The notes under the pieces: model-generated
Databases searched by the model: none
Seen by the model: the letters and a program-made list of their open reading frames with translations, nothing else
What the model was told of the DNA's origin: nothing
Shown here: piece after piece, positions 2,800 to 63,848 of the stretch
Layout: each line of letters opens with the position of its first letter
Position numbering within the stretch: position 1 is the first letter of the stretch
Program-made: the position numbers and the translations under genes
NCBI RefSeq assembly: GCF_964204865.1
Contig: NC_135262.1
Location: forward strand, 12,152,001-12,216,000
Direction: 5' to 3'
From: Styela clava
Taxonomy: Eukaryota
DNA length: 64,000 nt

Positions 2800-3320
2800 G
2801 TCTACACTATTTGAACTTTAAAAAATTAAGATACCCTTTAACGTATTCGAACAGTTTTCATCGTTCTATTAGCCTTTAATATTTGAAAAATATAAGAAAA
2901 TAACAACTATGTAAATTTTCCTATCGTAGACCTGTTTATTTTAAGAAATGGAATGATAATTTTATTCATCAGTGATGTTTTATTTTTAGTAATTGGACAA
3001 TGCCCTAATCGTGACTAGAAATAAGTATTAATATGTCACGTTTTCTGGCGCCGTTACGTTGTAATACAGCCTTTTGTTTCTCGAACTTATCCATTGTACT
3101 TGCGCGATTAGAACACGTATCTTGCCTGTGACTAAAATTTCGTTGTTTACGCAAATTTTTGAAAATTCTGATTATGATGAATTTATGATGTCATAATATA
3201 TTTACGATACTGATATCATAAATTTAAATTTTACAAATTGTGTATAGGATTTAGATCATGGTTGTTGAATGTAGTTAGCTCACGGCTGCGTCACTACGCT
3301 TGAGTGGTAATAGGCTACGT

Positions 3321-4646
3321 CAGGGGTGTGCAACCTTTAATACAGGAGGGCCAGATACAAGTAACTGGGTGAATCCGCGGACCGCATCTAGAAACTCTAC
3401 CTACGAAAGGCTCTGGATACGAAAATATTGCTCCGGCTAACGTAAGATTTTTTACATACGAAAGGCCGAAAACCTAAATTTGTTTATTTTAGGTTAATTT
3501 TATGCAGTGCTTGAAGAATGGTTGTCCTATTCCGATATCGCAACCTTCGAATATCGTTTTTCGTGTTTATAAGAATGCCCAAAAGGGGGACATATCCTAT
3601 AATCCTAGCGCCGCCGTCCACGTTTTGATTTAAAATATTTTACAATTATTTTATTTTTTATCGTAATCGAAGGCAGCCATGTGCGGTGCGGCAATAAATT
3701 ATCCCCTGCCCGTTTGTTACCCGCGGGTACGTACAACGTGTTGCTAGCGAAATTCAGTGAGAAGGCGATGATACGCGCGTAACAGTTAAGACAAAAAAAT
3801 GGAAAAAAAAATATTGAATTTTATGTGTGTGTGTGCTCATTTTCGTACATTATGTACTCTCTTAGCTGTCAACTTTTGCTGCCTCTTCCCACCACCTCCG
3901 ACCACCGTCCTCTTACTGTCCGCGGTCTTCGTTTAGCCTAGTCGGCCAACGCCAAAGGTAAACAAACGGTTCGTAGTTTTTATTCGGTATTTCTCTGTTC
4001 TTTCTTCTTTCCATGTGTGCCTTTTTTGTTGATTATGCAGTAAATCTAATTTTAACATGAATTTTTTACGTGTTTTAACCATTATTGTAATTTATACAAA
4101 TATTATGTTTAGTTCTGTGGAGGCTTAGAATGGATTATGGCATTTACAGGTAAAATGCGTCCCTACTTACGGAATTTTCTACCTACGAAGGTTATTCCGG
4201 AACTAATTAATTTTGTAGCTAGAGTTTCTACTGTAGTTGCAAGCACAAAAAATTGTTTCTTTTCGTTATTGATCTTATTGTTAGGGGTCCTTGCAGAACT
4301 GTTGAGTTAATACGAGAAAATAAAGAAAATTCGTGTGCAGCAAGACTCTTGAATTTAATAATATAAAGAAAACTGCTATTCAAACTGATTGTCACACCGA
4401 CTTTAAACGAATTCGCTGAGAAATACGTTTTTATAAGATTGTGTATATTGCAAAAGGATTTTGCTTGCTAGTTTTGCTAATATGACAATGGCACGTAGGT
4501 ACTGGTAAAAGCTTTGTGACGCAAAGAGATTGTAATTGCTCGCGTGTACCAGAATAACTAAGCAAAAAAATTCGCACCATTCAAAATTCGCACTTCTCCG
4601 CGGGCCGCACAAATTTTATTTACGGGCCGCAGTTTGCACACCCCTG
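3321..4646. mobile_element. hAT non-autonomous element
   Basis: TIRs CAGGGGTGTGCAA / TTGCACACCCCTG; perfect 8-bp TSD GGCTACGT (3313-3320, 4647-4654). Confidence 0.9.
3385..4233. mobile_element. Tc1/pogo (Tigger-like) MITE nested in the hAT element
   Basis: Right end GTAGCTAGAGTTTCTACTG followed by TA; degenerate left end TAGAAACTCTACCTACGAA; internal TACGAA repeats. Confidence 0.6.
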
Positions 4647-26285: not shown

Positions 26286-27033
26286 TGCAGACTAAATTTT
26301 TAATCGAAATAGAGAATATACGATTGAATCCTAAATGTCACGTTATTGGCATGCGATAACGACAGTCGACTTAAAAGTATGTTTGTCCGCGCATTTCTTT
26401 GCATTAACGCGTTACGCATTCGTCCTCAAAAAAAGATCATTTCTGGCATCACAAATCACAAGTACGCGAACAAAAATAGACAAATGTTTGAAATATAAAT
26501 ACAGTAAGCGGCAGCTACCCTTAGCATCCGGCTTCGACGTTCTGTAGCACATGCTATGAACAGCACAGGGTTAATGAAACCATGAGCAATCAACCGTATC
26601 AGTAAATATATCCGTCGCTCTTTTAATAAGCTGACTTGTCTCGCATAGTCGTATTAGCAGCAAAATTTACAAAGTCAGTTCTTTTTGGTGTACTATAACA
26701 AGAATATTGTCATCTCAGCCTCAGAACTGCGATTTATTTATTTTTCACGTTATACTTGAGTGATTCTTAGGTTTGATCGGGGTCGAGTTGAGGTGAAAAT
26801 GCCAAAAAGTGAAGATATTTTGTAATTCGTAGAAGGGTAAATTACGCCGAGTCATTATGTGTATTTTCTAAGTTAGCGGGTAAATATATGCGTGCTTCTA
26901 TCTCCATCAGCGAAGCAAGTTTGTGATTGAATATGTATAGCTAAAATCCTTTTAGATATTCTAGGTGTGTACCTTTATACACGAAATAAAAGTACTTACA
27001 GATAAAATTGCGTATAGGTATCTTTCATATACC

Positions 27034-27795
27034 ATGTCGCTTGCAAGACTTGTAGGAAAAAGCACACTTGTAACCGGAGGCGGAAGTGGAATAGGAAGAG
27101 CAATTTGTCAGGTGTTTGCAAGAGAAGGTGCAAGTGTAGCAGTAATTGACATCAACCGTGACGCTGTATCTGAGACTCTCGATCAACTGCCGAGGAACCA
27201 TGGCAACTTACATTGCGCCATTGAAGCTGATGTGACCTCATCCGGAAGAGTCAAACACGTTTTTGCAGAAGCAAAAGATAAGCTGTCCAAAACAAGCACC
27301 ATCCTAGTCAACAACGCAGGTATTATTCGTGGCGATCTACTACTGGATATGAAAGATGATGATTTTGATGACGTCATCAGAATAAATTTGAGAGGATCGT
27401 TTCTTATGGCTAGAGAATTTTTGAGATCATTGAAAGATGCAACTGATATTAAAGGCTCCTTGGTGAATATAGCAAGTATCGCAGGAATAACAGGATATTT
27501 CGGGAATGCGGATTATTGTGCTTCAAAACATGGAGTAGTTGGATTGACAAAAAGTATCGCATTGGAATATCCGAAACATAAAGTACGGTGTAATGCCGTG
27601 CTACCGGGTATAACCGACACACCAATGGCACAATCATTCGATCCAAAGAAAATAGAACAAGGCGTGAGACAAATACCGATGCGAAGATTGGCAAAACCCG
27701 AAGAAATTGCAAATGCTTGTTTATTTTTCGCATCAGATGAAAGTTCATACGTCAATGGAGCATGCTTAGAAGTAACGGGAGGACTTAATGTTTAA
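27034..27795 (+). CDS. HSD17B8: Short-chain dehydrogenase/reductase, HSD17B8 / 3-oxoacyl-ACP reductase-like, intronless
   Basis: TGGGSGIG Rossmann motif, NNAGI, catalytic YCASK, C-terminal SSYVNGACLEVTGGL. Likely start is MSLARL at 27034. Confidence 0.85.
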   Translation: MSLARLVGKSTLVTGGGSGIGRAICQVFAREGASVAVIDINRDAVSETLDQLPRNHGNLHCAIEADVTSSGRVKHVFAEAKDKLSKTSTILVNNAGIIRGDLLLDMKDDDFDDVIRINLRGSFLMAREFLRSLKDATDIKGSLVNIASIAGITGYFGNADYCASKHGVVGLTKSIALEYPKHKVRCNAVLPGITDTPMAQSFDPKKIEQGVRQIPMRRLAKPEEIANACLFFASDESSYVNGACLEVTGGLNV

Positions 27796-48508: not shown

Positions 48509-48975
48509 TAATATGGAAAGGACACAAGTGGATATATATAGAGCAAAAAAAAGAAAATAGGAAAAATATGAAAAAATAATCATGGCGTCAACTCTAATCT
48601 AAAAGGATGATAATAAGATAATATATATAAATAAACAAATTAGCGCAAGTTCAAACAAACGAGGATTATTCAAACAATGATTTATACACAGGCGGGAAAA
48701 GTGTGGTTTCTTTGAAAAAAATATCACGTTATCGACTAGGTCCTATTTAGGAAAAGGGCTTATATCAAAATATTGTTTTTAAATTAAGGTTAGGTATCAT
48801 TTTAGGGAAAACATGGTGGCTGTTATTTTGGCAATATTGCCTTTGTAATTTTAATTCATAATATATGTTGTTTGGCTGATATTGCGGTATTCAAACATAT
48901 ATTTACTGTGCTAGTTTCGTTTTTACCTGTGTTCATTGATTTGTTTATGTTTTTATATTATCTGGTGTAATAAAC

Positions 48976-51900
48976 CAATGACATTAAACAACATGATGCG
49001 CAACTCCGACATTTTTGTCCGAAGATCGTATTCAATAGCACGCTCCAATGCACATACTTGACGAGACGAAAACGAGCGGACGTGTGCTGCTTTCGAGGCG
49101 TAGCACGAATGGTGTTCGTGCCTGCTTTGACAGTTGTTGTCGATTTTAATGATATTTTTGAAAGTTGGGGTAAAATAAAATCGGTAAAAGGTAAGGTGAA
49201 TACTATTGTTGTATATCACACCCGGGCATCGCACTGTTAGGTACATGTGGGAAAGCCAGCCTTTGTCAAATACTACGAAGTTATTAATTCAGTACGGTAC
49301 GTAGTTGCCCATTTGCCGAAATTACATATTTACTTACCCCTTATGGTTTCAAATAGTTCATGCACCTCCAGTTAGATTTTTTTAATCAGTGAGGATATAT
49401 ACTCATTGTTGATTGCTGCTCATTGTAACATACTATTGCGCATTCACTTTTATTTGCGTATTGTATCAAAGTGTTAACAAGTTCACCTAACATTTCACTC
49501 ATACCGGTCTATATTGTATAGTCTGATTTCTCAAGTATTTGGAGCCACGAATGCTTGTAAATTTCTGACTAAACCCTTTTTATTAGTTGGTTTATATACC
49601 AAATTCAGTAAAATATTTTTTACTTAAAACATGAGATATTGGATTTATTAGCTTTTCCATTCTAAATCATATAGACTGCTTTATTTATTCTTAACGAAAA
49701 TTAATAAATCTCCTCTCTTTCTTCAGATGTGAAAGTTGTGGACAAACCTGTCTAAGCATTGTGAGACTCTTGCAGTACAAGAGACAATAGCAGAAATAGT
49801 AAGTATATCAATCAAGAAATTAAGCCGACATAAAGCAAAACTTTCAACTATTCGTCTAATCTCAATTTCCTATTATTTATTCACAGGACAACTATAGCAG
49901 ACGGGGAGATATCAGAAGTCTGGCGACATATCAGTGACAGTGTGATTCCAAGAAATATAATGTTTGCAATAGAAAAACAACCTATGGAGGCATGCAAAGA
50001 CATTTGACCCTCCGGTAGAGTTGTTTATGGCCCCCGCATCCTGCAGGGCTTGAGGGAAATAACTAAAAATTCCAAAGCGTAAGATTGCATAAGCGGTCTT
50101 ATTTGTAAAAAGGCACAAAACACGCCAGACATACTTAAAACAGCTTTGGAAATGAGGATTACGGGTACCTCACTGCACCTGTGTTATATTTGGTTCATCA
50201 ACTTTTGGTAGTACTATAGAAGAAATTCCGGAAGGGGTATAATCATCATTCATGATAAAATACTATCATATATTTTTTGAACAACTTCAATCTAGACCAG
50301 GGATCTCAAACTCGCGGCCCCAGAGAACTTCCAGTGCGGCTCTCGAACGCTTAACAATAATTGTAATAGTATTTTGGAAGTTTTTTTTTTATCTAAATGT
50401 AATAGATTTTTCAAACCTTCTAAAGTGAAATTGATTTTTCACACAGAAAACAATTTACTGAAAGTAGTTTTGGAATATTAATTTGTTTTGTCCACATTTT
50501 GACCCAATTAAGAATACACATCAAGCTAGCAAAAGAATACTTGAATAAAACACTTGAGTAATTAAATTAAACGCAAAGTACATGAAGAAAGTGGCATTTT
50601 CGAAGAAAATGGGAGTTGTAACATTTCTGCTCTTCACAAAATTCTGAAGCACATTGTTTAATTTGTCATATTCCCATCAATACAATCAAAAAACACAATA
50701 AGCTCAGCAGTCAATATGACAAATTCGAAGACCAACTTCGAACAGAAAATTTCCATGTGTTTGTATATTAATATAATTATACAACGACTTAGTTACTAAA
50801 AATCAATATCAATAATAATTCAAGCAATCCTATGCCACGCAATGTAGTGCAAATGTCTTGTCGAAAAAATCTGTCATTTGTTTTTTTACTGATCTATACA
50901 TGAAATGATAAAAGTAACTTTTTTGCATTACTGGAATTAATTAAACATTCGTAAAGATCCAGATAAACCCATGATCATGTGGCCTCGTTAGTTAGAGTTG
51001 GTACTATAAAATCATTTCGAACTGGCCTTAGTATGCTGGTGGCACAAAAAAGATGCCAAACGCCAGGACAAATGTAATTATTAAAACATTGAGTTTAAAC
51101 TGTAGTATTTTTGTTAATTTTAGGTTCATATATTTAGATTAAGTTATTTTTAGTGTATGTATTCTTCTTTCTTTATTCAAAGCTTGTTCAAAAATGATTT
51201 TGATGGTTGTACATAGAATTTTACGATTTTTTATAATAAATACTGTAACTTGCAAATGTTGCAATAATAGTGGAATGCAAATATTAATATGTAATTGCAT
51301 TTGAAATTGAAGAAAATAATAAAACTTAATCCAACTGTTTAGTTGCATCACAATATATGTCACAAACTAAAACTATCTTAAAAATATCTTTTAAGTATAC
51401 ATTATCAAAAACTGTTTGCGGCTCTTTTTACAATTTTCAAAATGCAATGCGGCTCTCGAAAACCCATGAGTTTGACACCACTGATCTATTCTAGACGATT
51501 CAAGCATTGCTTTGGGAAATTATATCACTTCAATTAAATTGAAATAATCTCGCTATATGAAATACAAAATCGTTGCTATCATAAAGGTAAACCAATTCAG
51601 CCACTCGAAATATATTGGCCTTCACAAAGCAATGGAGGCAAAATTGAGAGTTCATGAGCTATGAACATTTGTTCTTTTCTTTGTCTTGAACTTTTCATAC
51701 TCCATAGCCCCTATTAATTTTTTTAATTTTAATTACCATGTGATGGTCATACATATCTTTAACTTGTATTTTCTGTCATGATGTATTATCTCAATGTGCC
51801 AAACTATTAATTAGTGTGCATATTTTGCTTCCAGATGACATAAATGTATTGTCATGTTTATTACCTCAGCTTGGAGTATTGACAAGAAAAAGGTGCCAGT

Positions 51901-52773
51901 AAATTAGGTAAAAAAATTTTCAATTCATTGTTATAATCAGAATTCACAATCAATAGGAATTATAAACAGCCAACAATCAGTGAGAATTATATGCGAAATC
52001 CCGCAGAATAAATTTGTCTAAAATCGGAGGAAGGCAAAAAATATAGGTAGTTTCCATCCACACAAGCATTTCAAGAAGACTTGCTCGAGCCAAACTAAAT
52101 GAGCATCGTCAGGTGATCGGTAAGGCTGCAAGTTGAATTCAGCCCTGCAACCTCCTGCATAGAAGATAATATTAATTAGTGGGCTATGAGCTAAATTCCT
52201 AAATTTAAACAAACCTATCTACGATGCATTATGTACCAGCAATGTTACCTACGATTAACTGAATATATAATATGTCTAATAAATTCACCTACAAAAGCAA
52301 GTTCGATAGGTGCAAACTTTGTGTTATGGAATTGTATCGCAGCACAGTTTTGTATGACACCCTCTTTAAATGAAATTTCAATGATTAAGCGCAAACATTA
52401 AAATTACTAACTTTGAACTTTGTCATTATCGGCAAAATGTTCCACACAAATCTTTCCGCTATCGCGTTTGTAATCTTCTCTGATAAAAAAAAAACGTCTA
52501 TGATGTCCAGAATTGCTCTTTACAGCTTGCCTGTTATTCCAGCTTTCCAAGTAAGCAAAACTTCTTAGATATAGAGATTATTTTGTTTCGTTACAGGCGC
52601 AAAAAGGCAGGTACTACACGTAAAAAAGACGCCGAGTAGCAAAAGCGAGCGGAAAACGGACGCGAAAGGCGACGAGAAATATGTGCATTGGAGCGTATCA
52701 TGAAATATAATGTTTCGCCTGTAGTCTTATGGAGTGACGTCAGAGTTGCCTATCATGTTGTTTAATGTCATTG
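48976..52773 (-). mobile_element. P-superfamily element (decayed)
   Basis: TIRs CAATGACATTAAACAACATGAT / ATCATGTTGTTTAATGTCATTG; perfect 7-bp TSD AATAAAC; THAP-like remnant RDSGKICVEHFADND on the minus strand at ~52422-52466. Confidence 0.8.
50298..51483. mobile_element. hAT non-autonomous element nested in the P-like element
   Basis: CAGGGATCTCAAACTC / GAGTTTGACACCACTG; left flank ATCTAGAC, right flank ATCTATTCTAGAC. Confidence 0.75.
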
Positions 52774-53282
52774 AATAAACTAATTGAATTGAATATCTGT
52801 CTGATCATCGGCACAAATTTCAATTGTTACCTCATTATTGACTTCATCCTGATTGGGAAATAAGCAGAAAAGACAATACTTAGGTAAACATTATTTTCCT
52901 ATTTCCTGAGTCATTTCAATTTATTGTCAGAAATTTTTTGTCGCCTTAAACAGTTCGTAACTCACTTCATCCTGACCTAAACCTATCCATCCCCATGGCT
53001 ACCTCGATTGATGTTGCCCTGGTGTCTCTCTCGTTTCCGTGGGACCATTTGAAAGCTCTCTCGTTTCGACGATAGACTTTCAACTTTTCCGAGGCGCGTA
53101 ATGGATTTCCGATTGGATTTGACATGAAATCAATCATTTGCGTTGATTTTTCTCGCATATTCTCCTGATCTTGATTCGTTTCTCATCATGTATCAAACGC
53201 TAGTATATCCCAGCCCACCATAAGGTGCTAATTTTGGCAGTTTTATATATTTGCGAAAGTCGTGGTTAATATTACGGCCAAC

Positions 53283-53316
53283 CAATGACATTAAACAATG
53301 TTGTTTAATGTCATTG
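53283..53316. mobile_element. P-element excision footprint (two fused TIR ends)
   Basis: CAATGACATTAAACAA-TG-TTGTTTAATGTCATTG flanked by 7-bp GGCCAAC / GGCAAAC. Confidence 0.8.
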
Positions 53317-54619
53317 GGCAAACGTATCAGTCAAAAACACCCACAAAATATTAGCCAAGATGGCTTATCGGAATCGCTTCCCCACCTGTATTTGGCCTTA
53401 TTTTTTGTATTTGCGTATTTTCTCAATATCATTGCGTGACCTGGTTCCGTAGTACCCGAGCTGTACATATAAATAGAACTAAAGAGCTCTCCATAAGTGT
53501 GTGTACCAATATGAAGACAACTAATATTGTTCGCCTACTCTACACCAAGTTGTGTAAAGGGACAGAAACCTATGGGCACAGGATATATTCACTTGGCTAA
53601 CACGCACACACAATCCCCGAACTCGTAATAGAACTAGAATAAGAAAAATCTGAATCAAAATGGGCACTCGCAGTATATTATAGAAATATGATATTTGTGG
53701 TGATCAATCAATCAATCGATATTAGAAAATAGACAATTATATTTCATTCGATTGGTAAATATTTGTCCATTTTATAAAACTGGAAATCCACGCCAGGAGT
53801 TGAAAATAATTAACCAAATATGACCGTATATAGCCGTATCGCTATCATCCAGTCATTTACCGAAAACTGTTTATGTGTTGTTTTATTATTATTATTATTT
53901 GTATCATCATGTTTCTGGTTTGACGAAAATATAAATTCTCTCTCTTCATTCCCTTACCGACACCTTGTGGTTAATAAACCTTGCCTTCTGCTTCTAGCGT
54001 TTTGTGGAAAGGCTTACGAACAGACTATCGCTCCTTCGCAAAAAGCTTTGGAGGTTGTAGACTATGTCAGTATGTAGGCGACACTACAGTACCGGTACCT
54101 GTAAGCTAGCTTAACAATTTGTTTTACATCACACTGATTCCTTTCACCAAATTTCAATAAAAAATATTAATCTGCGAATTGTTCAGTTAGAGATTTTTTG
54201 AGATTAATGATTTTTTAGGCAGAACTGGGACAGGCGGCAGGGCAGCAATCACAAGCTGACAAACACAAAATGGATTGTGCTTGCGTGCATTTTTATGCAA
54301 ACTGTTACCCAAGAAATAGGGAGGTCGCATTTCTGAGATACTTTCATGACGTTATTGTGACAGTACAACACCCACCAAAATGGAAGAGTACGGTAATCAT
54401 TTTCGATGATAATATACGACAACGTGTCGAAAGATAATACACGACTTATTCAATAACTAGCGAGCAATTGAAAAAACCTTCCTCTAATTTTATTATTCTG
54501 ATTCATTTTTGTAGAATGACAAAATAGTTCTTTCTGAATCTTCAATAAAATAGCTGCTATTCCAGTCTATATCTATGTTGGGAATTATTTAAAACAAGTC
54601 TCAGATAGATCAGAAAACC

Positions 54620-57352
54620 ATGGCCTCTGTCGAAGAGAGCGATTATATTTGTCGTGTATGTAGATCTGAAGGTTCCCAAGACAAACCACTTTATCATCCA
54701 TGTATTTGTACTGGAAGTATACGATATGTACATCAGGACTGTTTGGTACAATGGCTTCGCCACAGCAAAAAAGAATATTGTGAATTGTGCAAGCATAAGT
54801 ATTCGTTCAAGCCAATTTATAGTGCTGATATGCCCACTCGTCTGCCAGTAACTGACCTCGTGTATGGGTTATTCCGCAGCATATTCATGGCTGTAAGATC
54901 ATGGTTGCATTATACCTTGGTAGCGGTGGCTTGGTTAGGTATTGTCCCCCTAACCGCTTGTCGAATTTATAAATGTCTTTTTACCGGATCGGTAAGATCT
55001 TTACTGAGCTTACCAATGGATATGCTTTCTACTGAAAATGTAGGACAGGATATTTTATGTGGATCATTGGTCGTGGCTTGCACGATGGCTTCTTTCATCG
55101 GATTAGTGTGGCTTCGCGAACAAATCATGAATGGTGGCATGCCAGGCTGGCTAAATAGAAACGGTCCTGATAACGTCGCTGTAGCTCCGAATGCAGAAGT
55201 TGCGATAAATGATGATAACAATAACATAGAACATGGAGTCCCGAATGCTGAAGATATTGTTGAACAAGAAGAGGATGAATCGGATGATTCTGAAGACATA
55301 GATGAGGAGGAGGAAGATGCGGAACCAGAAGAGATTCAGCTGGATGGTGCTGAAGTTGAAGATCTGGAGGAAAATGAAGTGGATGTACAAAATGAAGGAG
55401 ATGATGGCAATTGGAATGCACTTGAATGGGATAGAGCTGCGGAAGAATTAACGTGGGAAAGAATGTTGGGACTCGATGGATCTCTAGTTTTTCTCGAGCA
55501 TGTATTCTGGGTTGTTTCACTCAACACTCTTTTCATTCTTGTATTTGCATTTTGTCCGTATCATCTTGGACATTTTGTTCTTGCAGCGGTTGACCTTGAT
55601 GTTTACCTCGTTGCTTCACGATTCGAAGGATTCCTCACCACTTTATTCGGATACGTTATTTTGACCGTGGCATTTTTTGTGTGTCATGCTGCTATGTTTT
55701 TGTTGAAAATGCAACGATCTGGAAGAGTTCTTGGGATTTTGTATATTGTATTGAAAGTAGCTCTGCTAGTTATGTTTGAAATGGGTGTTTTCCCACTTGT
55801 ATGTGGATGGTGGTTGGACATTTGCTCACTACAGCTTTTTAATACAACTGTTCAAGAAAGAGTTACTAATTACATAAATTCACCTGGAACGTCGACTTTT
55901 TTCCATTGGTTATTAGGAATGATTTATATATTTTACACAGCTTCATTCATGCTGCTTTTAAAAGAAGTTTTGCGTCCTGGCGCATTATGGTTCCTACGCA
56001 ATTTAAACGATCCGGATTTCAACCCGATTCAAGAAATGATCCACTTACCATTGTACAGACATATTCGAAGATTTTTACTTTCAGTCGTTATATTTGGATC
56101 TGCAGTTCTAATGATGATTTATTTGCCAGTGCAAATGATACTTCGTTATTCACCCAACTTTCTACCATATCATGTTAATTTACGTAAAGATGTTCCAATC
56201 AGTGATTTATCTCTTGAACTTATCCTACTGCAAGTTATCATACCTGCTTTACTAGAGCAAGGCCAGACAAGGCAATGGTTGAAATCAATAATAAAGATTT
56301 GGGCGAAAGTTGTTGGTACTTTACTAGGTGTAAAGTCATATCTTCTTGGTGATACTGACGGCGATGCCAGAGCTCAAAATGAAAATCAAATTCAACCTCA
56401 ACGGGCGGTAAATAATAATGATGAAAATCAAGAAGAAGTTCCAGTTGTGCCATTTCAGCAGCAAAATTTACACCCAGAACCACAACAGATGGCTTTAGAT
56501 GGCGAGATACATCAACCCTATACTCGCCCAAATTATTTTGTGACTAGAATTGTGCTTTTGCTACTTTTAATGTGTGCAACGCTTTCATTGATCAGCCTTA
56601 CAGTAATGGTCGTACCTGTGGGAATTGGACGATATTTATTTAGTTTGTGGTTAGGTACTGAAAATGCTAATTTTATACATGATTTATATCCTACAGCTTT
56701 GGGGTTATATACATGCTGGCTGATGGGACATTTGGTAAACTTATCAATGGTATGGTTTCCTCGGGGTTCAAGAGCGATTTGGTCAGAGTGTAAAACATTG
56801 ATTAAAATGATTTCTAAAATTGCGATTGTTGGGGGTTTTGTTTTTGGATTATTTCCACTATTGTTCGGATTGCTTTTTGAGCTGGTAATCGTAATTCCAT
56901 TGAGAGTACCTTTACACCAATCTCCTCTTAATTTTCTTTGGCAAGATTGGGTGCTTGGAATTCTTTTAGTTAAGTTAGCAGTTGCTTTAACCTTGCTCGG
57001 CCCCCAATGGAAAATAAGAATTGCTATAGAGAGGGTCTTTCATCAAGGACCTAGAAATTTCAGTCTTCGTGATATGTACGTTGATGTTATTCATCCCATT
57101 ATGTGTAGTCTTTTATTATCTTTAACTGTGCCATATGTGATTGCTCATTCGGCCACATATGTTTTAGGTTTGCCACACGATTTTTCAAATATTTTATTAC
57201 GTCGTATATATCCTTGTCTCATTTCCTTTTTTGCACTAGTTTCTTTTCTCATGTTTGAAGCGAAGCAGTTTCGTCGATTGTGCGATCATATCAAAAATGA
57301 ACGTTATCTTGTTGGGAAAAGATTACTCAATTACGAGCCTGCTAAAGCCTAA
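54620..57352 (+). CDS. MARCHF6: E3 ubiquitin ligase MARCH6/Doa10, intronless CDS
   Basis: RING-CH domain (ICRVCR..PLYHPCICTGSIRYVHQDCLVQWL..CELC), WDRAAEELTWERMLGLDGSL, TD region GWWLDICSL, and C-terminal IKNERYLVGKRLLNY. Confidence 0.97.
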   Translation: MASVEESDYICRVCRSEGSQDKPLYHPCICTGSIRYVHQDCLVQWLRHSKKEYCELCKHKYSFKPIYSADMPTRLPVTDLVYGLFRSIFMAVRSWLHYTLVAVAWLGIVPLTACRIYKCLFTGSVRSLLSLPMDMLSTENVGQDILCGSLVVACTMASFIGLVWLREQIMNGGMPGWLNRNGPDNVAVAPNAEVAINDDNNNIEHGVPNAEDIVEQEEDESDDSEDIDEEEEDAEPEEIQLDGAEVEDLEENEVDVQNEGDDGNWNALEWDRAAEELTWERMLGLDGSLVFLEHVFWVVSLNTLFILVFAFCPYHLGHFVLAAVDLDVYLVASRFEGFLTTLFGYVILTVAFFVCHAAMFLLKMQRSGRVLGILYIVLKVALLVMFEMGVFPLVCGWWLDICSLQLFNTTVQERVTNYINSPGTSTFFHWLLGMIYIFYTASFMLLLKEVLRPGALWFLRNLNDPDFNPIQEMIHLPLYRHIRRFLLSVVIFGSAVLMMIYLPVQMILRYSPNFLPYHVNLRKDVPISDLSLELILLQVIIPALLEQGQTRQWLKSIIKIWAKVVGTLLGVKSYLLGDTDGDARAQNENQIQPQRAVNNNDENQEEVPVVPFQQQNLHPEPQQMALDGEIHQPYTRPNYFVTRIVLLLLLMCATLSLISLTVMVVPVGIGRYLFSLWLGTENANFIHDLYPTALGLYTCWLMGHLVNLSMVWFPRGSRAIWSECKTLIKMISKIAIVGGFVFGLFPLLFGLLFELVIVIPLRVPLHQSPLNFLWQDWVLGILLVKLAVALTLLGPQWKIRIAIERVFHQGPRNFSLRDMYVDVIHPIMCSLLLSLTVPYVIAHSATYVLGLPHDFSNILLRRIYPCLISFFALVSFLMFEAKQFRRLCDHIKNERYLVGKRLLNYEPAKA

Positions 57353-59332
57353 ATAATTTTAATTTGATATCAATTTGTTATTATTGAATAAAAAAAATTT
57401 TTTTTGGAAACTGGTTTCCAGTTTAACTCAATTGTTGTGAGTTTTTTCTGCTGCTTCATTTTATTGCAATAATTTCATGATTTTTACAGCTTATTGTATA
57501 ACTGTGTTTTTTGTCTGTTATTCTTCTGTGTTTTTGTTTTGCCTCCATATAGTATTGCACTTATCTGGAGATTAATAATTTTCTAATAGAAATGAATGAA
57601 CTGCCTTATGTTTGGTAAATCTAACAAGTTTTAGAAGTATCGTGCTTGGAAACCATGGATAGTTAGTCTATTAATGAAAACCATAAAAGAAACTTCCTCA
57701 TTTTTTGTAAAAAAAAATTGGAAAACGTTTGTAAAAGGAACTCAAATGATAGTGTAACATAAACTTCTGTGTAAAGAAGTGTTCAAGATGATTCAGCTGA
57801 AATGGAATTTGAATTGCTTAATGAATAATTAAGACTTCGTTAGAACTGAGTATAAAAATTACTATTGTTTTTGTTAAATTGACTTTTTTAGGGATAAATT
57901 TGGCATATAGCAGTTTTTTCCCAACAAAATTTTGTTACATATTCACTGTTCAAATTAAATCAAATTTTCGAATCAATTCAAAATTAATTATATTTGGGAT
58001 TTTAAGTTCTTGGTTTTAGAATTAATTAAGGATAGTAAATTTCGAAAAAGCTATTGAGAAATTTAAGTCTCACAGGCCTTATTTTAAAGTTATAAAAATT
58101 TTTAAGATATAGAAAATCAATTGAAACTTTTTTGTTTTTCCATATTTGAACACATTGAATATGAATCAACTTCAACATGTTCTCTGTTAAATATACTTAT
58201 CTAATTTAAAATATATTCAATATCTGAATTACAGTGGTAGATTATTTGGGTTCGGCCATCTCCGCATTACACTGCATGATATTTCCATTGTTTCATTCAA
58301 AGAGAATTATATATTTTCTTATGTTAATTACCTGCCTTCGTAGTCTAAAATAAGCCTGATCTTTCTTCAATAGATGATTGATCTGTCTCATCAATTTTGT
58401 GAACTGCTTTCTCGTTGTACTGGGAAATTCAATATAGTACCATATCTAATATAGTACTCTAAATTATCAATTATTTTACAATATTTTCATCAATAATATG
58501 TTATTGTCGCATCCACAAGCAAGAATTGGACTATTGAAGAGATTAGGCAGATTATAACAAACATTGGTACAACAGGAAAACCAGATAAAATATCTGTTAT
58601 TTGCTCTACATTTCTGCCTTTAAATTCAGTCCCCATAGTATTCACACTGATTTGTATAAATTTTGAATGCTTCTCAGATGTGAAAATCTTTTTTTTTCAG
58701 AAGATTATTCAAATTAGTAAATTTCACATGGCTTTTGGCCAGCCTCACAAGCTTGCAGTGTCAATAACTTATTATTATGTATCTATAATCAGATGTGTTT
58801 GTGCTTATTTGTATTTCTTGACTGGGATTTATTGTTCATTGCTTCGTTTGGCATTAACTGTATTGAAAAAGTGTGTTTGAAATGAATGACAATAAGTATT
58901 TATCATTCCTAAAGGAAGACCATCTTGCACATATTTGAATAATCGTTGGCATATTAGGATGTTTCTGAAGAATACGATTTCCCCGTTTCAATATTGCCTA
59001 TCCTATTATTTGCACTTTTTTGAGGTGGTGGACATGGGATTTGAAGATAGAGATATGTAACCTGTGAACGTGACACAGTTAAGTCTCTAACTCTAACCAC
59101 TAGGCAATCGTGCGCAGAAAAAATATGGAAGGTAAAATAATCACATCTCAATAATTGTATTTTATGAACTTTATTGCTTAATATTATTTGTGCTTGATAT
59201 TTCTCTCACATTTTCACTTTTGGTAAAAGGATGCTGTTGATAAAAATGTCGTAATACTGTACAGTGTATAATATATATTTGAATTTTCTTTTGCTCATAC
59301 TTAGATACTACCATATTATTAATATTACTTAT

Positions 59333-60931
59333 ATGATGGATAAACAAAAAGAAGCATTGGTGAGAATTACTGGAACTGTACAAACAAAATATGAAGAAGT
59401 GGATAGATATGCACGGGAACTTCATTCAAAAATTGACACACTCGAAAATTGTTACAAAGATTCGATTTTAGAACTGGACGAGCAATTCCAGATGTTGGCA
59501 GAAAGTCTCGAAAGAGCTCGAACTCGAATGATGTCTGAGATTGAAACTGAATTAGCAGAGAAAATGAAACCGTTGCAAGAGCATTTACAAACTTTCGAAT
59601 CAGCAAAACATGATGCTGAAGATCTAATTGCAATGTCCAATGAGGCCCTAGATTTGACAGCACCCGATCAATTCTCACAAGCCGCTCTTCGTATTAAAGA
59701 GCGTGTAACAATGTCTCCTATATTTCGGCTTTCGCTGTGCCCGTTTGATGATAATGCAGAACCAGAATGCTTCTTTTATGCTGATTTCGCTAGGGAACAA
59801 AACGTTTTGAATCAGCTGAAATTTCTACCTATTCCAAGCCAACCCGAAATTGTTAAAGCCGGATGTTTTGCGGAAAACAATATCGTTCATTGCCTATGGA
59901 CAATTTTGGAAGAAGAAGACAATTTTTTATCTGCTGATATGCCGATAAGTTTATGCAGCGAACAAACAGATCGTCTTCACCTGCCTTCTTCTATCAATTA
60001 TTTCGTCGTACAATATCGACAGGTTCGAACTAGCGGAGAAAATATTCCATGGATCACTATTGAATGTGTTCGTTCAATGCAATGTGATATAAAAGGGTTA
60101 ATATTTCATCAACCTTTTCTTGAGTTCCGTGTGCAGGCTTGGAATAAGGCAATGGGGGGTACATGGAGTAAAGTAGGGTCAATCTCTACTCCAGCTTTTC
60201 ATTTTGCTCTCAATCCAGACGCCTCCCATCCAAATCTTAAAGTGATTTCAGATGATGTTGTGGAATGGGACGCTTCGTCAAATAAAGTTTCTCAAGATAA
60301 TAGAATAAAAAGTGCTAGCATGACTCGCTCGCCGTCTCCGGCGAAAGGTGTAACCTCATCTTCTCCTAGAAGAGCTAAACCTAAAGATCGCTTCACTGGA
60401 GAGTCTTACACTGTACTTGCTGACACAGCATTTAGTGACGAAGAAGCTTATTTTGAGGTTTCACCTCATCCTGACTGCAAAACGTATTCTGTAGGAATAA
60501 CCTTGAAATCGCTTGCCAGATTTGATCAACTGGGAAAAACAGCAACATCATGGTGTATACATATCAGCAGCTGGATTCAGAATACATTCGTTGCGAAACA
60601 TAACAATAAAGTTAAAAATCTAGATTCATCAGGTCAAACACCAAATAGATATGGAGTCTACTTCAATCTTTCTACTGGAATATTGTCTTTTTATAATGCC
60701 GAAACACGTCGACACATTCATACGTTCAAGCAAGTAAAATGCAATGGCCCGATTGTTCCAGGATTTCTTATGTGGTTCGGATCTTTAGAGGTATTTACTG
60801 GGATTCAAGTTCCATCGTGGATTGTCACACGACCTTCAACTTCTCTCAATATCAAATCTGATTCAAGTTCGACAAAATCAAATTCACCTGTGAATCCAGC
60901 AAGTCCAGAGGAAAAGTCATCTTTGAAATAA
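59333..60931 (+). CDS. FSD1: FSD1/FSD1L-like protein (coiled-coil/COS, FN3, SPRY), intronless CDS
   Basis: KQKEAL start, IKERVTMSPIFRLSL, DFAREQNVLNQLKFLPIP, SHPNLKV..VEWD, DRFTGESYTVLADT and FVAKHNNKVK. The ORF-track start at 59264 is GTG; the first ATG is at 59333. Confidence 0.9.
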   Translation: MMDKQKEALVRITGTVQTKYEEVDRYARELHSKIDTLENCYKDSILELDEQFQMLAESLERARTRMMSEIETELAEKMKPLQEHLQTFESAKHDAEDLIAMSNEALDLTAPDQFSQAALRIKERVTMSPIFRLSLCPFDDNAEPECFFYADFAREQNVLNQLKFLPIPSQPEIVKAGCFAENNIVHCLWTILEEEDNFLSADMPISLCSEQTDRLHLPSSINYFVVQYRQVRTSGENIPWITIECVRSMQCDIKGLIFHQPFLEFRVQAWNKAMGGTWSKVGSISTPAFHFALNPDASHPNLKVISDDVVEWDASSNKVSQDNRIKSASMTRSPSPAKGVTSSSPRRAKPKDRFTGESYTVLADTAFSDEEAYFEVSPHPDCKTYSVGITLKSLARFDQLGKTATSWCIHISSWIQNTFVAKHNNKVKNLDSSGQTPNRYGVYFNLSTGILSFYNAETRRHIHTFKQVKCNGPIVPGFLMWFGSLEVFTGIQVPSWIVTRPSTSLNIKSDSSSTKSNSPVNPASPEEKSSLK

Positions 60932-63314
60932 GTTTGTGTTTTCTTCCCCTATTTCTCACATAAAATTCACTTATGAAGATTAATAATTCGTATATTGCAT
61001 GAATTTTGTTGTTGTTTATATTTAGGAAATATGACAAAATAATAATATAATATAGTGAAAAGACTGAGTAGAAGAGAAATATAGCTTGAGTATAAAAATG
61101 GGAAGCTGATAAATGATTTTATTATTTACCGTACATCTCCACTTATTATTAATAATGCTTTATTTTCAATATTATGGTGCAAATGCATAAAACTTTTTTG
61201 AATTTCGTTTTTATTGGTGCCCTCAAGTTTCAAGATGTAGTGTTACTTTATCCTTTATGTTGTAAATAATAAATCTGTTATGAAATTCCATATTAGACTA
61301 GTGAAAAGTGTTATTTTGTAGTAAGCTATCTCGTAGTTCCTTCATTTTTTATTTTTCGTGGCTCCATTTTTTATTCTCAAATTTATCTCATATTGAAATA
61401 CTGATAAAATTTGCTATGTTATCAGATCAACTCTAAATCATGCTGCTTATAGTAGAGAGAGGTTGCTCATGATAGTTATCTCCTTCCATATCTGAACATT
61501 TACTTCTTGGTATTTTCAGATTTTAATAATAATTTTGAATTGAAATATTCTAAATTGGTAAATGTAAAGCAAAAATTGTTGTATCTTGCAATAAGATTTG
61601 ATATAAAAAATTGTATTTCCAAAAAAAAAATTTTTTTTGGGAGAGTTACCGTAATATTCAAACATCTGAATTGAAAAATAAACTTTTTTAATGACATTAA
61701 TTCACATTTTTGAAAGTTTAAGTTATTCGGATTTTATACACAAATATTTCGGTACAAATTTATCACTGTTTTTATCAATTTCATCAACAAAAGGTCAGTG
61801 CAAATATATTTATTTATAAAAAATAAAGCTGTGATCAAGCAATAATATAATAAGTAATACTGTACTAATAAACTTCACTGAGAATTATTGTAATTAACTT
61901 TAACTTTTTAGTAACATATATTATATTTTTCGCATTACCTAATCGAAATAAAATTGTTCGAAATGCTTCTCTGCACAATTAAGTGTATTATTCATCAGTT
62001 TTGTGCAATTTTTTATCAACTTGTGTTGCAATTGAACTGTTGTGAATTGTGATTGTATTTTATTATTCACCATGATAAATGAATACACAAATAAGCTTTT
62101 ATGAGCTACATCAGTAATTAGCTTTTAAATTTATTTATATCATTCCTATGACCACTTATTATCACACTATAGTGGTTATAAATCTATGGATCATGACACA
62201 AATTGGCCTAAAATTAAAAATAGGTGGTTTTGTGAAATAATGATAATGTAATAGATGTTAGTTATACCTTAATTTTTAATTCGAAAAACCTGTCAGTGTA
62301 ACTTTTCACTTATTTCATATTTTTATTTTTTTGTAGCTTTTGCCTGGTGACTTCTTTGTATTTAATCTCTATTGTTCAATGTTAGTATAAAACATTCCTA
62401 GTGTTATCTTTACTCAATAAGTCAGGGCAATGTAATTTTAGTCATGAATCATGTAGCGAGCATTGACGTCTTTTTCAGGCATATGATAAAGAACAACTTA
62501 GTAAGGGTTCTGAACCTTGTAACATTTGAAATATTTTTTTGTTATATACCGTATGCTCAAACATGATATATTGATGCCAGGCCAAAGTTTTTTTTTGACT
62601 GGGATGTTTTTTTTAATGAAAACATTCCTTGTTATACTATGTGCTATATGATATTGTTAGCTAGTTGTTCACTGTGATGGTATATATGGGTATACTCGTC
62701 GTATATGTAGTGAGCCTGGAGTATTTAATGGGTTAAAATTATATTTGGATGTATCTATTTGCTTTACTTAATATACTTAATAATATCTATGTAGTTTCCA
62801 GTTGGACCACAATATCAATGTCAAACAAATAGTTTGATATGATACTATTGGATTGACTAACATTCTACGTTTATTTTAAGAGTTATTAATAAGAGTATTC
62901 TGATCATGATGAATTAGAAAAAAACTTATTATTTTACTTTTTATGTATTATATAATTTGAACAGATTTAAAATATATATTGTCAATGCTGTAAAGTTATA
63001 CTATTTACTTGTTACTGGAAATAGTCAAAAAATTTTCTTATATGTTGAAACTTAATGTTTATTGTTTTTTTGTTGTTCATCCCAGATACATTAAAATTAA
63101 ACATCATAAAAATAAACTAGGTTACACATTAAGAAAGCTGTATGAAGTTCTGGAGTAGATGAAGATTATTTATTAAATACACCAAGGGTGGATATTGTTT
63201 TATACTTATTATTCGCAATTCATGGAATTTTAACATTTTATTTATTAATTTCTGTAATAGTTTTATTGATGGGTTCGGTACCTGCTTGTTAGTTCAGTAA
63301 AATCGACTCTAAAA

Positions 63315-63848
63315 ATGGCTTCTGGAGGTCATGATGCAGCAGATAGTATTCCAACACCACGAAGCATGGATGATCCGAAAATCCAAGGACCAAACTCGAA
63401 GAAACCCATAATGAATAGGACTTTTAGTGGAGAACAAGAAACAAGTTCACACGAACATTATGAAAAAAGTAGCCATGGACTTCAAAATAAAGCTGTACCA
63501 TATCAAAGATCTACGAGACCATGCGCTCCACAACCTTCGAACAAAGGTCAAACTCAAATTAAACCAAGACGCGTCGGTGAACGAATCGAAGATGTATTTC
63601 AGGATGAAATAGTTCAGAGATTTCCGAAGATGACTGAGTTTAAAAAGTTCGCTCGATCTTCGTCAGGATTGAGATTATCAGATTATGATGTCGAAAGCAT
63701 AATGGAAGACTATCGCCAGGCAGAGGAACAAAAGCTTCAAATGTTGTATTTATGGAAACAAAAAAAAGGGAAAAATGCAACACCAGATTTGATTCGCAAA
63801 CTAGTTGATGAGTTTTTTGATAGACCAACCTATTATGATCAAGACTGA
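63315..63848 (+). CDS. Small protein with C-terminal death domain
   Basis: Disordered N-terminal half, then FKKFAR..GLRLSDYDVESI..EEQKLQMLYLWKQKKGKNAT, a typical death-domain pattern. Confidence 0.75.
   Translation: MASGGHDAADSIPTPRSMDDPKIQGPNSKKPIMNRTFSGEQETSSHEHYEKSSHGLQNKAVPYQRSTRPCAPQPSNKGQTQIKPRRVGERIEDVFQDEIVQRFPKMTEFKKFARSSSGLRLSDYDVESIMEDYRQAEEQKLQMLYLWKQKKGKNATPDLIRKLVDEFFDRPTYYDQD

Follow-up and report, generated by a model that had tools for sequence, protein, structure and literature searches.

The window analysed here is a stretch of 64,000 nucleotides from Styela clava (NC_135262.1, positions 12,152,001 to 12,216,000). It holds a transposon of the P superfamily, a short palindrome built from the same terminal repeat, and a MARCHF6-like gene. 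In window coordinates, the features are:

48969..48975, plus strand: left 7-bp duplication of the element, AATAAAC, exact
48976..52773, minus strand: non-autonomous P-superfamily element, 3,798 bp, with about 500 copies in the genome
50029..50306, plus strand: broken remnant of a convergent second gene, C-terminal-domain-like (E 4e-12; element positions 1054-1331)
52042..52134, minus strand: remnant of the P transposase core (74% over 31 aa, E 7e-11; element positions 3067-3159)
52410..52487, minus strand: remnant of a THAP exon (77% over 26 aa to a coding sister element; element positions 3435-3512)
52774..52780, plus strand: right 7-bp duplication of the element, AATAAAC, exact
53025..53658, no strand assigned: older dispersed repeat of about 630 bp hosting the palindrome, 74-89% identical to its paralogues
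53276..53282, plus strand: left target-site duplication GGCCAAC, the ancestral target, single copy in empty paralogues
53283..53316, no strand assigned: 34-bp putative footprint joining the outer parts of the two terminal repeats (16+18; 17+A+16 if read on the minus strand)
53317..53323, plus strand: right target-site duplication GGCAAAC, with one substitution (6/7 match to the left copy)
54593..57352, plus strand: MARCHF6-like E3 ligase, one uninterrupted 919-codon frame

Long plus-strand frames with SPRY, Death and short-chain dehydrogenase domains lie elsewhere in the window, at 59255-60931, 63270-63848 and 26965-27795.

The copies of the element's family are mostly near 3.8 kb in the part listed. 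Its inverted ends extend over 35 bp with 91% complementarity, the first 22 bp being identical, and across the 377-Mb genome the terminal 16-mer is matched 514 + 515 times, against 1 + 0 for the reversed control. The window copy has no long coding frame and keeps only transposase remnants; its THAP, core and second-gene remnants all match the coding sister element described below. Inside it, at 50296-51485, lies a segment of about 1.2 kb with short inverted ends, shared with other copies and absent from the coding sister, and resembling a small nested transposon that has become fixed in this family.

Read directly, the palindrome consists of a 16-bp arm, TG and a second 16-bp arm. Exact copies of the terminal 16-mer number four in the window, one at each end of the element and two in the palindrome; with three mismatches allowed there are five matches where 3.4 are expected, a loose count that is not significant by itself. 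The original prediction, that the palindrome is the outer 16-18 bp of each terminal repeat fused and flanked by the 7-bp duplication GGCCAAC/GGCAAAC, is borne out in both parts. It had also called for empty alleles, and empty sites exist as paralogues: all 19 host-repeat copies that were aligned, among 44 matches listed, carry a single GGCCAAC-like 7-mer and no terminal-repeat word. Because these paralogues are empty, the 34 bp together with one target copy is a true insertion remnant, and because they show a GGCCAAC-like 7-mer, the right copy of the duplication appears to have acquired a later C>A change. What remains at the site, terminal-repeat ends alone inside the duplication at a position empty in relatives, is what defines a Drosophila-type footprint. 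A full-element allele was not seen here in contigs or reads, the flanks being repetitive and the signal swamped by paralogous repeats. The end of the host repeat, at 53490-53660, is a very high-copy short repeat with a depth thousands of times background.

We consider the palindrome very probably to be the scar of a P excision, with a staggered cut of about 17 nt followed by end joining as its likely cause. Drosophila P transposase leaves 17-nt 3' tails at the donor site, a stagger described as a distinguishing feature of P transposition whose order and mechanism are unknown (PMC7776569). Repair of the tails in Drosophila yields microhomology, blunt and templated-insertion junctions, partly via polymerase theta, and the junction table published there shows the same classes as the remnants reported here (PMC2895639, Table 1). 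The events that we envisage begin with the insertion of an element, from the 3.8-kb family or a related one, at GGCCAAC in the older repeat, with duplication of 7 bp, as the empty paralogues indicate. By analogy with Drosophila, excision would then have left two identical, non-complementary 3' tails on the chromosome, each made of the outermost 17 nt of a terminal repeat. End joining at short homologies, with some synthesis and probably through polymerase theta, may then have united them. The 34 bp could arise by a simple route in which base 17 primes on base 5 of the other tail, copies ATTG and re-anneals on bases 14-16, or alternatively by direct 16+18 joining from an 18-nt tail. The same families have left scores of such remnants, with arms limited to 17-19 nt and, in a second family, to 17 nt.

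Such a scar is of a known kind, and a single one is ordinary; its value lies in the set. By itself the window scar cannot fix the depth of the cut, because its junction parses equally well as 16+18, as 16+19 with one shared base, or as 17+A+16 on the minus strand. A reading as 17+17 plus a CpG change was set aside, because unrelated sites and the sister family have this 34-mer too. The figure for cut depth is taken instead from the genome-wide remnants, most cleanly from the second family.

Searching the genome for two 10-bp arms within 50 bp returned 90 sites, and none in the control; 86 distinct sites were listed. Looser and asymmetric searches were added (among the matches listed, 100 of 131 and 100 of 114), all patterns requiring exact arms, for 120 candidates overall. 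A duplication with at most two mismatches flanks 111 of them, an exact 7-mer in 85 cases (chance 1e-4 each); nine were dropped for poor duplications. Clustering by flanks, which may have merged a few independent sites, leaves 93 independent remnants, a captured 32-bp class having been removed before arms were counted. Against the 85 exact 7-bp duplications there are two exact 8-bp ones, and the target consensus is GT-N3-AC. The 7-bp duplication thus stands, a length as in 1360 and Galileo and not the 8 bp of Drosophila P.

Had excision not been involved, a broad random spread of arm lengths was to be expected by the original prediction; the arms are instead sharply limited. Among the 186 arms of the 93 remnants, 164 measure at most 16 nt, 8 measure 17, 4 measure 18, 9 measure 19 and 1 measures 20, so that 176 are no longer than 18 nt. 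Outside elements, the terminal repeat breaks in 18 rows at position 17, 4 at 18, 12 at 19, 3 at 20, none at 21 and 2 at 22. In these counts about a fifth of sites stay hidden owing to a filter on the last base; sites with G as the 34th base, among them the 34-bp class, are not included. The two rows at 22 are one duplicated internal deletion, and four of the 18 rows at 17 look like one copied event. Only three real remnants fall between 47 and 106 bp, all with arms of at most 17 nt and repeated insertions. Exceptions with long arms reach 20 nt (L123) and 27 nt (L271); in the long-arm search, 97 of the first 100 of 199 matches were the motif inside an element's own end. Junctions of the 93 remnants divide into 34 with microhomology, 22 blunt and 37 with insertions. 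Four remnants of 45-72 bp (L116, L117, L118 and L136) contain pieces of the terminal repeat inserted several times over, much as iterative templated synthesis would leave them.

From these limits the cut depth of the window's family would lie at 17-19 nt, with 17 as the best value. It is unlikely, though worth weighing, that the cut in this family falls 18-19 nt in, being set by a cue in the sequence, such as an inner CA just before it that resembles the element end, and not by a fixed length of 17. The four 18-nt and nine 19-nt arms would be explained directly by such a cut, as would a 26-bp remnant, found once in the sister family, that is the product predicted for a 19-nt tail. Ten of the 12 non-element rows at 19 continue ATT, which pairing of a CA or CAT end on bases 3-5 would explain with two or three matched bases as opposed to one. 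For the 19-nt class as a whole (the 12 break rows together with the 34-bp remnants), an 18-19-nt tail is as good an explanation as a 17-nt tail with synthesis. The last base of the 19-nt arms could equally come from the opposite arm, and a tail slightly longer than it looks might have been trimmed before joining. Against this, one-sided-looking remnants, judged from the match itself, end at 17 in eight cases and at 18 in only one, and there are blunt joins of 17 to 7, 17 to 8, 17 to 15 and 17 to 17. No 36-bp palindrome occurs in the 86 distinct sites listed, although palindromes formed at self-complementary stretches closer to the end are common. Seven other products requiring tails of at least 19 nt are likewise absent from the window-family remnants listed, and all four microhomology products predicted from tails of at most 16 nt were seen (2, 6, 6 and 6 times).

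A cut at 17 nt is read most clearly in the second 7-bp P family, which has terminal repeats of 48+ bp and a broken P transposase in locus L090. Here base 18 is missing from 47 of the 48 remnants that have a 17-nt arm. Among 30 remnants fetched, 26 carry a 7-bp duplication at no more than two mismatches, and their flanks are unrelated except in two pairs. By hand count, and under the last-base filter mentioned above, the first 100 of 121 occurrences of this family's 17-mer comprise 58 element ends, 57 of them with A at position 18, and 42 others; 40 of the latter break at 17 (including one ambiguous and a few duplicated), one at 18, one at 19 and none at 20-31. Three size classes, of 26 bp (26 rows), 28 bp (7) and 30 bp (3), match symmetric annealing of two 17-nt tails, with 6/8, 4/6 and 2/4 bases paired, and their abundance follows the annealing strength predicted for such tails. 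The 27-, 29- and 31-bp products predicted from 18-nt tails, which would keep base 18, were not seen among this family's remnants. Together with the capped arm lengths of the window's family, this supports the suggestion of the original prediction that Drosophila-like cleavage with a stagger of about 17 nt operated in this lineage.

One hybrid remnant (G000:C17:18081920-18081945) has one arm from the window's family and one from the second, and is likely the joint excision of a mixed tandem. Tandems sharing one duplication occur as element with element, element with footprint, and two footprints of different P families (L092:8917-8925, L215:4188-4196, L217:6120-6168 and L220), and fit the double insertion described for Drosophila P (10.1101/158386).

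Palindromes of this kind could in principle form without a transposase. Deletion between short repeats in paired terminal repeats is known from the nearly precise excision of Tn10, and such a collapse of the interior, or an aborted gap repair, would suit the many junctions with microhomology. A few long-armed remnants (20 and 27 nt) and internal deletions are likely of this origin. As an account of the whole set it is very improbable: it predicts arms ending anywhere in repeats of 22-35 bp (or 48+ bp), above all at the CATG palindrome at 17-20, whereas there is a step at 17 and nothing at 21; the inserted bases in 37 of the 93 junctions point to break repair; and the second family largely refutes it.

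Still more improbable, to the point of being scarcely credible, is that each palindrome is a minute mobile element in its own right, a 34-bp MITE. Identical sequences do occur at unrelated sites with different duplications, in the window's family as seven remnants of 31 bp, six of 24 bp and four of 34 bp, and in the second family as 26 rows of one 26-mer. There are, however, many length classes, from 16 to 72 bp, which track the microhomology map of the tail, and the palindromes have no inner binding sites. Copies that truly multiplied, 21 of the 86 sites listed, are one scar copied inside another repeat, with kilobases of flank shared in the five checked. The swarm of identical 34-bp copies that would have spoken for an independent MITE is absent; the 34-mer accounts for just 4 of the 93 independent sites, which show many classes and not one uniform sequence. 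Two footprints were captured inside other repeats and multiplied with them (L031, L171-L174 and L181; L241 and L249-L266), each with kilobases of shared flank.

Returning to the excision scar, its place beside a complete element had led the original prediction to suggest a local hop, with the footprint as the donor site of the element 509 bp away. The close spacing and the shared terminal repeat are in keeping with this, and local hops are known for P, there over 50-150 kb (PMC7776569). We nevertheless regard it as distinctly unlikely, and the genome-wide comparison does not bear it out. Any of about 500 copies could be the source. An element end lies within 1.5 kb at 1 of 18 other footprints of the window's family, where 0.15 is expected, and at 0 of 30 footprints of the second family. 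Moreover, element and footprint both lie just upstream of the MARCHF6-like ORF, at 1.3-1.8 kb, and a preference for promoters is known for P (PMC7776569; 10.1101/158386).

The enzyme responsible can be approached through the coding sister element, which spans 10,154 bp at G000:C18:4775463-4785616 (locus L092/L205), is flanked by a GTCAGAC duplication and has terminal repeats differing from those of the window's family by two swapped bases. Its core gives the three TNP-like domains PF21787, PF21788 and PF21789 above cut-off, with the THAP domain PF05485 at E 5e-4, under cut-off, and its only PDB match is Drosophila P transposase (6p5a_A, E 2e-16). In that alignment D303 and E531 are aligned and kept, as are seven of eight listed GTP-site residues: by eye, K385, V401, S409, F443, D444, N447 and D528 are identical and K400 is R. 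The coding region is split into several pieces resembling exons, and the first catalytic D would fall in an upstream piece. The best long relative of the core, labelled Ciona intestinalis, shares 52% identity over 82% of it. A THAP domain, an RNase H fold and a GTP-binding insertion in the sister, the D-D-E and GTP residues, and inverted ends with a 7- or 8-bp duplication place these elements in the P superfamily. As for the autonomous THAP9-like partner that had been called for, a sister with a THAP/P core exists, but no transposase-bearing copy with the window's exact terminal repeat was seen around 30 of 44 PF21787 matches (20 of them widened to 10 kb) and four further core matches.

A third family consists of young 5.4-kb P elements (L076-L089, for example L078:2670-8097), with copies 96-99% identical, an 834-aa open frame with a fused C-terminal domain, 8-bp duplications, ends unlike those of the 7-bp families, and its own footprints. 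As a partner for the window's element this intact-looking family was rejected by sequence, having other ends and 8-bp duplications. A search for its footprints gave 23 rows, 18 of them with duplications within two mismatches. Its commonest remnant, of 34 bp, fits a 17+17 blunt join or 18-20-nt tails with microhomology, a depth range of 17-20.

In both 7-bp families the core frame stops without a C-terminal domain. A profile built from the tails of 19 relatives in which the domain is fused matches an in-frame tail in L078, of the third family, and opposite-strand ORFs in L092 (E 5e-7), L090 (9e-12), L207 and L091, in a scan covering frames of at least 30 aa; in L092/L205 and L090 the domain profile is found only on the opposite-strand ORF. 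This second, convergent gene with C-terminal-domain homology lies at L092:2446-3318 (plus strand) and L090:6001-6945 (minus strand), and in the window as the remnant at 50029-50306. Alone, the second-gene ORF matched no Pfam family and no PDB entry, and it was found by profile only. A profile of six such ORFs has as its only PDB match the Drosophila structure's second chain, of 135 residues (E 4e-6), presumably the C-terminal domain of P transposase. A protein labelled Styela clava is 98% identical to the second gene. Four stand-alone proteins of this type, of 262-292 aa, were found, two of them at 36% identity; the annotated one starts, by eye, with a zinc-finger-like motif.

It is tempting to speculate that this tunicate clade uses a split enzyme, made of a THAP-core polypeptide and a zinc-finger/C-terminal-domain protein from the facing gene, which cuts exactly 17 nt independent of terminal sequence, while the fused-enzyme family in the same genome may cut at 18-20. 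We hold this tentatively, as somewhat less than an even prospect. If true, the scars would allow what sets the stagger to be compared within one genome, in just the domain that touches the looped single strand of the Drosophila structure. They would also document, from a natural germline, how theta-type end joining deals with tails of a defined 17 nt.

Beyond that proposal, fixed scars allow cut depth to be read from a genome, and they record the same break repaired naturally and independently many times over. With three P families in the same genome, it becomes testable whether a ruler or a sequence cue governs the cut. That the limit lies at 17 in a family whose terminal sequence differs, whose duplication is 7 bp and whose enzyme is split suggests an ancient 17-nt geometry that at least one lineage of chordates has conserved. 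A search of largely open-access literature found no report of P-type cut depth outside Drosophila, of genome-wide P footprints or of a two-gene P element, and none of the cut depth of 1360 or Galileo.

Among known systems, vertebrate THAP9, zebrafish Pdre2 and the Ciona P homologues are likewise chordate P-type transposases, although Pdre2 has 13-bp terminal repeats and 8-bp duplications; zebrafish excisions are described with larger flanking deletions, and there the 17-nt cut is stated for the Drosophila enzyme only (PMC10983969). The 1360/Hoppel and Galileo elements share the 7-bp length of the duplication (PMC3698922, PMC3276498). 1360 also prefers palindromic targets, given as GTTNAAC or KTNBWAB in comparison with GT-N3-AC here, and both are described as intronless, whereas the sister element's coding region appears interrupted. 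P of Drosophila melanogaster (PMC7776569, PMC2895639, PDB 6P5A/6PE2) has in common with the families described here its THAP domain, RNase H fold and GTP-binding insertion, the conserved D303, E531 and most GTP-site residues, CA...TG ends, remnants limited near 17 nt, microhomology, blunt and inserted junctions, and shared-duplication tandems. It differs in its 8-bp duplication, against 7 bp here, and its 31-bp terminal repeats; the ascidian families have a distant core (E 2e-16) and their C-terminal domain on a separate convergent gene. The Drosophila junctions were made in an assay, whereas the scars described here are fixed in a natural genome. They extend a known type of scar to a tunicate, and what is new is the sharp limit at 17 in a P clade with a 7-bp duplication and a seemingly split enzyme.
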